Made by a program: the position numbers and the translations under genes. Positions 27,864 through 59,765 of a DNA stretch of 64,000 nucleotides are shown in pieces. Source of the stretch: Escherichia coli (GTDB lineage: Bacteria; Pseudomonadota; Gammaproteobacteria; Enterobacterales; Enterobacteriaceae); NCBI RefSeq assembly GCF_003334305.1, contig NZ_QOWS01000009.1. The stretch is one strand, 5' to 3'. Below the pieces are notes generated by a model. That model was not told the origin of the DNA. It saw only the letters and a list, made by a program, of their open reading frames with translations, and did not search any database. The stretch's first letter is position 1. Each line of letters opens with the position of its first letter.

Positions 27864-28161
27864 ACGCGTGATCCGTCCTGAAGAGCGTTCACATAGATCC
27901 TGCTGATATAAAACACCCCTGTTTTCCCGTTTATTCATTGATCGAAATAAGAGCAAAAACATCCACCTGACGCTTAAATGAAGGTACTGCCTTAATTTTC
28001 TGCAGACAAAAGGCGTGACGATGGTCGAAAATGGCACTTTCGTCAGCGGGGATAATCCGTTATTGAACAATTTATCCTCTGTCCATTTCACGATGAAAAA
28101 AATGTAGTTTTTTCAAGGTGAAGCGGTTTAAATTCGTTCTCAAATTACAGTCAGGACGCGT

Positions 28162-29532
28162 ATGTTGAATAATGCTATGAGCGTAGTGATCCTTGCCGCA
28201 GGCAAAGGCACGCGCATGTATTCCGATCTTCCGAAAGTGCTGCATACCCTTGCCGGGAAAGCGATGGTTCAGCATGTCATTGATGCTGCGAATGAATTAG
28301 GCGCAGCGCATGTTCACCTGGTGTACGGTCACGGCGGCGATCTGCTTAAACAGGCGCTGAAAGACGACAATCTTAACTGGGTGCTTCAGGCAGAGCAGCT
28401 GGGTACTGGTCATGCAATGCAGCAGGCCGCACCTTTCTTTGCCGATGATGAAGACATTTTAATGCTCTACGGCGACGTGCCGCTGATCTCTGTCGAAACA
28501 CTCCAGCGCCTGCGTGATGCTAAACCCCAGGGTGGCATTGGTCTGCTGACGGTGAAACTGGATGATCCGACCGGTTATGGACGTATCACCCGTGAAAACG
28601 GCAAAGTTACCGGCATTGTTGAGCACAAAGATGCCACCGACGAGCAGCGTCAGATTCAGGAGATCAACACCGGCATTCTGATCGCTAACGGCGCAGATAT
28701 GAAACGCTGGCTGGCGAAGCTGACCAACAATAATGCTCAGGGCGAATACTACATCACCGACATTATTGCGCTGGCGTATCAGGAAGGGCGTGAAATCGTC
28801 GCCGTTCATCCGCAACGTTTAAGCGAAGTAGAAGGCGTGAATAACCGCCTGCAACTCTCCCGTCTGGAGCGCGTTTACCAGTCCGAACAGGCTGAAAAAC
28901 TGCTGTTAGCAGGCGTTATGCTGCGCGATCCGGCGCGTTTTGATCTGCGCGGTACGCTTGCTCACGGGCGCGATATTGAAATTGATACTAACGTTATCAT
29001 CGAGGGCAACGTGACTCTCGGTCATCGCGTGAAAATCGGCACCGGTTGCGTGATTAAAAACAGCGTGATTGGCGATGATTGCGAAATTAGCCCATATACC
29101 ATCGTGGAAGACGCGAATCTGGCGGCGGCCTGTACCATTGGCCCGTTTGCTCGTCTGCGTCCTGGAGCTGAGTTGCTGGAAGGAGCACACGTCGGTAACT
29201 TCGTTGAGATGAAAAAAGCGCGTCTGGGTAAAGGCTCGAAAGCTGGTCATCTGACTTACCTTGGCGATGCGGAAATTGGCGATAACGTTAACATCGGCGC
29301 GGGAACCATTACCTGCAACTACGATGGTGCGAATAAATTTAAGACCATTATCGGCGACGATGTGTTTGTCGGTTCCGATACTCAGCTGGTGGCCCCGGTA
29401 ACAGTAGGCAAAGGCGCGACCATTGCTGCGGGTACTACTGTGACGCGTAATGTCGGCGAAAATGCATTAGCTATCAGCCGTGTGCCGCAGACTCAGAAAG
29501 AAGGCTGGCGTCGTCCGGTAAAGAAAAAGTGA
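28162..29532 (+). CDS. glmU: Bifunctional GlcNAc-1-P uridyltransferase / GlcN-1-P acetyltransferase GlmU (456 aa)
   Basis: N-terminal nucleotidyltransferase motif LAAGKGTRM and C-terminal hexapeptide repeats. Confidence 0.95.
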
Positions 29533-29693
29533 TTCTGGCCGGGTAATCCGGTCACATGGGATGAGGAGATAACATAATCTCCCTCCCACAAGCAGTAACT
29601 ATAAAAATAACCCCACTCTCTACAAGGCTCGGGGCGCCCGAAAAAACGGGCATACAGGTTGACCGACAACGATATAAATCGGAATCAAAAACT

Positions 29694-58349: not shown

Positions 58350-59765
58350 TTAAACTTCTTTCAGTTTTGCGGTGAAGTGACGCAATACTTTTGGTTCGTA
58401 GGTAAAGGTTAATCCTTTAATATTCGCCGCGTTCTCTTTCACATGTTTAAAGGCTTCAATAATGAAGTCCATATGTGTTTGAGTATATGTTGCGCGCGGA
58501 ATGGTTAAACGCAGCAGTTCAGCCGGGCATGGCAGTTGTTTACCGGTTTTCGGATCGCGGCCTAACAGGAAAGAGCCAATTTCTACCGCACGGATACCGG
58601 CGACTTTATACAGCTCGCACGCCAGCGCCTGTGCCGGGAACTGGTCTGCCGGGATATGCGGCAGCAGTTTACCGGCATCAACGAATGCCGCGTGACCGCC
58701 CGCCTGCTGGCAGACAACGCCAATCTCTTCCAGACCATCGACCAGATACTGTACCTGCGCGATACGATAAGCCAGCCAGTCGAGATTCATGCCGTCATAC
58801 AGACCTACCGCCAGACGCTCCATCGCGCCGCCTTCCAGGCCGCCATATGTCGGGAACCCTTCCTGCACCACGCAAAGGGTTCTGCACTCGGTGTACACAT
58901 CAAAGAAGCTGTCGTCTTTCATGCACAGCAAGCCGCCCATCGGTACCATCGCATCTTTCTTGGCGGACATCGCCAGCATATCGGCATATTTGTAGGTTTC
59001 GCGGGTGATCTGCTCGATGGTCCAGTCTTTGTATTCTGCTTCACGCTGCTTGATGAAATAGGCGTTTTCAGCAAAGCGTGCGGAGTCCATTACCACCGGA
59101 ATATCGTATTTCTTCGCGATGCTGTACATCGCTTTTAAGTTTGCCAGTGAAACCGGCTGACCACCTGCAGAGTTACTGGTGATGGTTGCAACGATATACG
59201 GCACGTTATTCGGGCCAACTTCTTCAATACCGCGTTCTAATCCCTCAAGGTCAAAGTTACCTTTAAAGTCGTAACGCACGCCAGTATCGAAGGCTTCTTT
59301 GATATAGACGTTACGCACGGTACAGCCGTTAATCTGGCTATGGCCCTGCGTGGTATCAAAGAAATAGTTAGAGAATGCCACCATTTTGCTGCGATCCAGG
59401 CCTTTTTCCTGCTCGCGTTTTTTAATCAGTACCGGAATATAAATTTGCTCTGCGCCACGGCCCTGGTGAGTCGGAATGGTGTATTGATAACCAAAGATAT
59501 TTTTCACTGACTCGGCTAACGCATAGTAGCTGCGGCTGCCGCTGTAGGCTTCGTCGCCGCGCATCATCGCGGCCTGCATACTCTGCGTCACCGCCCCGGT
59601 GCCGCTGTCGGTCAGTAAATCGATAAACACATCTTCGCTATCCAGCAGGAATGGGTTCATACCGGATTTAATAATTGCCTCTTCACGATAAGCGCGAGTG
59701 GTACGTTTTACTGGCTCAATAACACGAATGCGGAACGGCTCAGGGAGATGTTTAAAGTTTTCCAT
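58350..59765 (-). CDS. tnaA: Tryptophanase (tryptophan indole-lyase) TnaA (471 aa)
   Basis: [32 protein letters not shown]...; start placed 5 codons inside the ORF-track ORF. Confidence 0.96.

Follow-up and report, generated by a model that had tools for sequence, protein, structure and literature searches.

The glmU-glmS intercistronic region of an Escherichia coli contig as the GlmZ-targeted leader of glmS

The glmUS locus and its leader

The window (the whole 64-kb stretch of DNA that was analysed) is E. coli chromosome and carries, in order, a 16S rRNA gene (15-1556, minus strand), the atp operon, glmU, glmS and an lpf fimbrial operon. The glmU and glmS genes form a co-oriented pair, by their open reading frames as well as by annotation, and the spacer between the glmU TGA and the glmS ATG is 161 nt long (29533-29693); an earlier reading made from the letters alone (here the sequence-only reading) had described a 160-bp spacer upstream of glmS, which is correct in its placement and one nucleotide short in its length. 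No terminator-like site was found in the spacer (29533-29693), and it holds only a single, weak promoter-like match, at background frequency, which fits co-transcription of the two genes. The features of the locus and of the leader (all on the plus strand) are:

28162-29532, plus: glmU coding sequence, a 456-aa open reading frame, named glmU by RefSeq in an E. coli genome of 100% identity; upstream cistron of the glmUS operon
29530-29532, plus: glmU stop codon (UGA/TGA), read from the sequence; the published RNase E processing site (PMC4152352, PMC3439879, PMC2267818)
29536-29554, plus: stem-loop 1 (UGGCCGG / CCGGUCA, loop GUAAU), from the minimum free energy (MFE) fold
29557-29588, plus: stem-loop 2 (UGGGAUGAGGAGAU ... 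AUCUCCCUCCCA), from the MFE fold
29591-29599, plus: (ARN)3 motif 1, AGCAGUAAC, candidate Hfq distal-face site, from a motif scan; putative coordinate assignment
29603-29611, plus: (ARN)3 motif 2, AAAAAUAAC, candidate Hfq site in a conserved A-rich block, from the same scan; putative coordinate assignment
29611-29634, plus: nearly invariant element CCCCACUCUCUACAAGGCUCGGGG, from conservation among leaders, with a predicted CCCC/GGGG hairpin (16-nt loop)
29636-29651, plus: hairpin 3 (GCCCG-AAAAAA-CGGGC), from folds
29681-29684, plus: Shine-Dalgarno (SD) core GGAA (-13 to -10), from the sequence; the GGA-type core is conserved, with columns 29682 and 29684 at 1.00
29694-31523, plus: glmS coding sequence (glutamine--fructose-6-phosphate aminotransferase), a 609-aa open reading frame with its ATG at 29694, annotated as glmS in the 100% identical genome

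Of 5426 complete E. coli genomes, 5425 have the spacer, once each and at 95-100% identity. Compared with K-12 MG1655 it has two differences, both in the loop of stem-loop 1 (G and U here, C and C in K-12), and from 29555 to the ATG the two leaders do not differ. The element is therefore present, as the sequence-only reading stated: the spacer is intact, and its GlmZ-binding residues, SD sequence, (ARN)3 motifs and hairpins are identical to those of K-12. The E. coli and E. albertii leaders sampled vary only within their first 65 nt and in the A-run of a hairpin loop, apart from a few single-base differences elsewhere in E. albertii; none of this variation touches the GlmZ-binding residues. The glmU stop codon itself varies in the alignment, being UGA here, in K-12 and in ET245, and UAA in UTI89, EC6868, EV36, Combat11I9 and E. 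albertii.

Two features of the surroundings may be recorded here. Directly after glmS, from window position 31825 onward (plus strand), lies an operon for a long polar fimbria (lpfA/B/C/D, O113 type, as annotated in the identical genome); K-12 has pstS at this place. The spacer between atpC and glmU contains a full-length match (187.7 bits; 27921-28078, minus strand) to the Rfam small RNA family STnc410, antisense to the promoter side of glmUS.

Folded in its entirety, the leader is strongly structured (z = -3.46). The stem of stem-loop 1 is kept in E. albertii through changes on both arms, and stem-loop 2 has counterparts with different stems in other Enterobacteriaceae leaders, as judged by eye (GGGGAU/AUCCCC, GGUAAU/AUUACC); it has been suggested that two adjacent stem-loops may aid recognition by RNase E (PMC4152352). 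Hfq is reported to bind two (ARN)3 motifs in the glmS leader (PMC4152352, PMC3439879), the second of which, ARN-2, is essential for regulation (PMC3439879). The motif scan found exactly two such runs, the published number, and the one at 29603-29611, with coordinates assigned here, is probably the ARN-2 of the literature.

Pairing with GlmZ and its conservation

The glmZ gene was not found in the window: an Rfam search of the 64 kb at gathering score matched 16S rRNA and STnc410 only. Across 5426 complete E. coli genomes, however, GlmZ shows an identity of 99% or more in 5425, so that the K-12 RNA is a fair proxy for that of the present strain, in which, given this species-wide conservation, glmZ is very likely present. 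The K-12 sequence (207 nt; L002:633-839; Rfam RF00083, 218 bits) was accordingly used as the query, in a windowed duplex search with correction for accessibility; a whole-molecule RNAduplex comparison of GlmZ with the leader returned a meaningless 165-nt "duplex" and was discarded.

The accessibility-corrected search gave one dominant site, spanning -40 to -22 relative to the glmS start codon, with a hybrid energy of about -19 kcal/mol (-19.2) and composed of two half-sites:

29654-29660, plus: GlmZ half-site 1, ACAGGUU (-40 to -34), predicted by the scan to pair with GlmZ 163-169 (GACCUGU); contains G-36, at 29658
29665-29672, plus: GlmZ half-site 2, GACAACGA (-29 to -22), predicted by the same scan to pair with GlmZ 150-157 (UUGUUGUC); contains C-27, at 29667

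This is, residue for residue, the pairing of Urban and Vogel (2008), who found that the glmS changes C-27G and G-36C abolish activation and that G155C and C165G in GlmZ restore it (PMC2267818); the GlmZ pairing region is given as -41 to -19 in a later review (Göpel et al., 2014; PMC4152352). Complementarity to GlmZ, which the sequence-only reading proposed looking for within 29600-29700, is thus found there and on the published residues, with the qualification that its energy does not set it apart from chance: when the target is shuffled with dinucleotides preserved, 90 of 1000 sequences do as well (-19.2 kcal/mol), and stronger complements of the same GlmZ segment are numerous in the 64-kb window. 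Pairing prediction by itself therefore neither confirms nor refutes the interaction, and the comparative and published evidence is decisive.

The strongest of the other sites in the window lies inside tnaA (58787-58808, minus strand), where a 13-nt exact complement, AGGUCUGUAUGAC, to GlmZ 153-165 is part of a duplex of -29.3 kcal/mol in full, stronger than that at glmS. For a match like this 13-nt complement the expectation is about 0.03 per 64 kb; no account of GlmZ binding tnaA directly was found in the literature, and the complementarity has probably arisen by chance.

When one genome per species was scanned, 80 glmS loci were obtained. The non-endosymbiont Enterobacterales among them number 50; in each, glmU and glmS are separated by a spacer of 106-448 nt, and 46 of these 50 leaders carry a CAGGU(Y)...GACA(A/U)C site about 40-57 nt upstream of the ATG. 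In Gilliamella, Aeromonas and the other outgroups there is no GlmZ site; in these the spacer measures 2-85 nt, or the gene preceding glmS is another one. The majority fraction per column averages 0.86 for half-site 1 and 0.82 for half-site 2, with higher values for the CAGGU core of the former (0.95-1.0) and the GACA of the latter (0.88-0.95).

RNAalifold, applied to a MAFFT alignment of 42 leaders, recovered only the invariant CCCC/GGGG stem, as indels misalign the variable hairpins; these were instead assessed by folding anchored segments of each sequence. Hairpin 3 is predicted in 39 of the 42 leaders, with up to 19 distinct arm pairs (four of them from mis-cut segments that run into the GlmZ site), a diversity indicating that the stem has been kept through compensatory changes. 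Such changes are abundant in both hairpins that flank the GlmZ site. The second of these, which separates the GlmZ site from the SD sequence, is stable and covarying and is found in most Enterobacterales leaders (loci L004-L052; corresponding to 29673-29680 of the window). In E. coli, E. albertii and a Kluyvera this hairpin is missing and the GlmZ site lies about 10 nt nearer the AUG; the leader of the model organism E. coli is thus the atypical, shortened form.

GlmZ orthologues for comparison came from two sources. A metagenome scan anchored on the conserved AACGUUGAGUGA block yielded 24, of which 12 were tested in Rfam (137-209 bits); all those mapped adjoin hemY, as in E. coli, and the cluster names of the adjacent HemY proteins assigned them to Serratia, Chania, Yersinia, Proteus, Providencia and Morganella. 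A search for distant glmZ loci through HemY homologues returned only relatives of at least 87% identity, all Enterobacteriaceae, and contributed a GlmZ from Klebsiella michiganensis and the only GlmZ and leader from one and the same genome, that of Enterobacter sp. Bisph1 (L128, L024); all other matching of leader to GlmZ is at the level of the genus. The K. michiganensis gene (L129:2770-3105, 336 nt) has an ERIC-like repeat inside its third stem-loop, and still scores 194 bits against RF00083.

Two leader positions vary together with GlmZ. Leader -40 and GlmZ 169 form an A:U pair in Escherichia and Bisph1. In Serratia, Yersinia and Morganellaceae the pair is U:A, and here the metagenome pattern required an A at GlmZ 169, so that the taxa that appeared are informative and the base is not; K. 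michiganensis GlmZ has U at 169. In the leaders, -40 is A in 25 of 27 of Enterobacteriaceae type and U in 20 of 24 others. At the adjacent pair, leader -41 and GlmZ 170, E. coli has a U.U mismatch, Serratia A:U and Yersinia thracica U:A, and the Photorhabdus leader set against Morganellaceae GlmZ also gives A:U. In a cross-hybridisation matrix, the Serratia and Y. thracica leaders pair best with the GlmZ of their own genus; the E. coli leader does not pair best with its own. These comparisons, which rest on genus-level matching and one same-genome pair, indicate that the leader site co-evolves with GlmZ across Enterobacterales, at -40/169 and -41/170.

Half-site 2 follows another course. Its GACAAC becomes G(A/G)CAUC in Serratia and Yersinia, with no compensation in GlmZ. 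It had seemed possible that the change from GACAAC to GACAUC in Yersiniaceae and Pectobacteriaceae is offset by one from GUUGUC to GAUGUC in GlmZ, an idea rejected because Serratia and Yersinia GlmZ keep GUUGUC; a separate metagenome scan for GAUGUC-type variants returned none, with a pattern that was too strict on spacing. The GlmZ sequences of Proteus, Providencia and Morganella (L109, L112, L114, L123, L124, L126) lack the UGUUGUC half-site altogether and carry GACCUGAUUGU in its stead. This sequence is complementary to 11 nt of the Photorhabdus leader, and with the preceding UA (UAGACCUGAUUGU) to 13 nt of Pectobacteriaceae leaders, a family from which no GlmZ was recovered. The replacement suggests that the architecture of the duplex has shifted between families.

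Proposed mechanism, alternatives and related systems

The MFE fold of -62 to +20 contains a structure over the ribosome-binding site, in agreement with the published stem, which sequesters the SD sequence and has the GlmZ site as its left arm (PMC4152352, PMC2267818):

29659-29688, plus: inhibitory hairpin, from the MFE fold, in which UUGACCGA (29659-29666) pairs with UCGG (29679-29682) and UCAA (29685-29688)

An outer helix in the same fold, GCAUA (29650-29654) with UAUGU (29693-29697), lies over the start codon. The inhibitory hairpin taken alone is no more stable than those of shuffled sequences (z = -0.9). With the GlmZ-paired residues forced single-stranded, the AUG has a modelled probability of 0.68 of being unpaired, compared with 0.38 otherwise, and opening 29679-29696 costs 1.2 instead of 4.5 kcal/mol in the ensemble model. 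The SD sequence is predicted to be mostly unpaired already (0.71, ViennaRNA), so that the part masked in the model is mainly the AUG and its flanks. The modelled effect of GlmZ occupancy on the ribosome site is thus modest, which fits the basal glmS translation reported in the absence of GlmZ (PMC4152352).

On this evidence the region is, with a probability of about 0.96, the E. coli glmU-glmS intercistronic region acting as the 161-nt 5′ leader of monocistronic glmS mRNA and as a target of the Hfq-dependent small RNA GlmZ. RNase E, which is reported to cleave at the glmU stop codon (PMC4152352, PMC3439879, PMC2267818), would release a glmS mRNA with its 5′ end at 29533 (-161). In the free leader, 29659-29666 and its flanks would pair with the SD and start-codon region (29679-29697), as in the fold obtained here and the published one, and so limit initiation. 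Full-length GlmZ, encoded some 70 kb away and outside the window, would then pair through its residues 163-169 and 150-157 with 29654-29660 and 29665-29672; this step rests on the prediction made here, on the published compensatory mutagenesis of an identical sequence and on the covariation described above. Hfq, bound at the upstream (ARN)3 motifs (29591-29611, with coordinates assigned here to sites known from the literature), would assist. Displacement of the inhibitory arm should leave the ribosome-binding site free, raising GlmS synthesis and stabilising the mRNA. GlmZ is itself under the control of RapZ and GlmY (PMC4152352, PMC3439879), and such an anti-antisense activation would close a glucosamine-6-phosphate feedback loop through these two. 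That GlmZ pairs here to activate glmS translation, as the sequence-only reading held, is borne out by the identity of this leader to the one tested, by the published compensatory mutations, by conservation and by covariation.

Other readings of the spacer are possible in principle. It might be a passive intercistronic gap whose complementarity to GlmZ is due to chance and has no regulatory role, and the numbers obtained from this sequence by itself would allow that: the hybrid energy is within the shuffle distribution, stronger complementary sites occur elsewhere in the window, as inside tnaA, and the inhibitory hairpin is not significantly stable. A chance match, however, would not be expected to keep its place with respect to the start codon in 46 of 50 non-endosymbiont Enterobacterales leaders, to be absent from the outgroups and to show base changes at -40 and -41 matched by changes in GlmZ, and the published mutagenesis of the identical sequence (PMC2267818) already refutes it; we regard a passive gap as very improbable. 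A cis-acting metabolite sensor, such as a riboswitch resembling the glmS ribozyme of Gram-positive bacteria, would likewise precede this gene, and might account for the strong structure of the whole leader. The spacer has no match to the glmS ribozyme (RF00234) or to any other Rfam family, however, either in the search of the window at gathering score or in that of 29480-29760 at E-values up to 10, and E. coli is described as being without the ribozyme (PMC2267818), leaving this reading with a negligible share of the probability. Nor is there much to be said for a small protein encoded by the 58-codon open reading frame on the minus strand (29493-29669). It does appear in a mechanical list of open reading frames, but it begins with TTG, overlaps the 3′ end of glmU and the structured leader, and is broken by a 1-nt indel in UTI89 and EV36; the pattern of conservation in the leader, with its indels and compensatory changes, is that of RNA hairpins and not of a reading frame. 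We give such a protein next to no credence.

An internal promoter, operating besides processing, differs from these in being compatible with the GlmZ-targeted leader. The A/T-rich block and the CCCCAC that follows it (29600-29616) might serve as a -10 element and start site, and a TATAAAAAT-like or ATAATAAT block is conserved just upstream of CCCCACUCUCUACAAGGCUCGGGG in all Enterobacterales; there is also the one promoter-like match in the spacer, at 29551-29578. That match, however, scores 9/12 and lies off the conserved block, promoter-like matches in general are at background frequency (4 found, 5.0 expected), and no recognisable -35 was seen upstream of the block. [quoted passage not shown]

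The GlmZ-targeted leader is at the same locus, and of the same 161-nt length, as the glmUS region and glmS 5′ UTR studied in E. coli K-12 (Kalamorz, 2007; Urban and Vogel, 2008; Salim, 2012; Göpel et al., 2014), from which it has no functional difference; it is the reference locus itself and not a relative of it. Among other systems it resembles the control of rpoS by DsrA, RprA and ArcZ, in which an Hfq-dependent small RNA likewise binds the 5′ arm of a hairpin in the leader, one that blocks the ribosome-binding site, and in which upstream (ARN)n sites for Hfq are also required (PMC3439879, PMC2267818). It differs from these in that the glmS target is a downstream operon cistron released by RNase E processing, in that GlmZ activity is set by regulated decay (RapZ, with GlmY as a decoy) and not by transcription, and in that the pairing is bipartite, with 7 and 8 bp and internal loops of 4 nt in the leader and 5 nt in GlmZ. 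The glmS ribozyme (RF00234) of Gram-positive bacteria places the same enzyme under the control of glucosamine-6-phosphate, again through the glmS 5′ leader; it is, however, cis-acting and self-cleaving, and as the E. coli leader has no match to it in sequence or structure, the two mechanisms are unrelated.

The product of GlmS, glucosamine-6-phosphate, is the first committed precursor of both peptidoglycan and lipopolysaccharide, and the circuit formed by GlmY, GlmZ and RapZ on the glmS leader, a textbook case of small RNA activation of a downstream cistron, lets enterobacteria overcome GlmS inhibitors. The GlmZ-activated leader found here is an ordinary instance of this already known system, and its being intact in one more genome adds nothing new. 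Of possible use to those who study the circuit are the remodelling of the GlmZ-glmS duplex by lineage, the hairpin missing in E. coli and present in most of its relatives, and the strongly conserved leader element CCCCACUCUCUACAAGGCUCGGGG.

A nearly invariant element next to the second Hfq motif

The element CCCCACUCUCUACAAGGCUCGGGG (29611-29634) lies directly 3′ of the second (ARN)3 motif. It is present, in single copy per genome, in all 51 Enterobacterales leaders with a long spacer, and absent from the outgroups. Its columns have a mean majority fraction of 0.96, higher than in either half of the GlmZ site (0.86 and 0.82), and to judge from this pattern of conservation it is clearly under selection. 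It matches no Rfam family and has no convincing complementarity to GlmZ; it is neither mentioned nor given a function in the texts (figures aside) of PMC4152352, PMC3439879 and PMC2267818, and a literal search of the papers for its sequence gave no match.

A kissing interaction between the loop of GlmZ stem-loop 1 (GCCUU) and the AAGGC of CCCCACUCUCUACAAGGCUCGGGG was considered and rejected, the GlmZ loop not being conserved in Proteus, Morganella and Chania. The most economical guess is that CCCCACUCUCUACAAGGCUCGGGG is part of an Hfq platform together with ARN-2. That it should be a functional module of the leader in its own right, either a site for a conserved trans-acting factor or a structural platform with the essential second (ARN)3 site, is a tentative suggestion, and on balance a doubtful one; it is prompted by conservation across six enterobacterial families that exceeds that of the GlmZ site and is not explained by GlmZ pairing.

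The spacing between CCCCACUCUCUACAAGGCUCGGGG and the GlmZ site is variable. In five glmS leaders (L008, L009, L012, L021, L027) an ERIC-like repeat of about 125-130 nt is inserted after hairpin 3 and ahead of the GlmZ site, which puts some 125 extra nucleotides between the element and the site in these five species.

The first 14 nt of glmS itself (ATGTGTGGAATTGT, 29694-29707, plus strand) are invariant in 42 Enterobacterales, synonymous positions included, and variable in the outgroups. This suggests a constraint at the RNA level, which might reflect, for example, pairing with the leader or a role in initiation.
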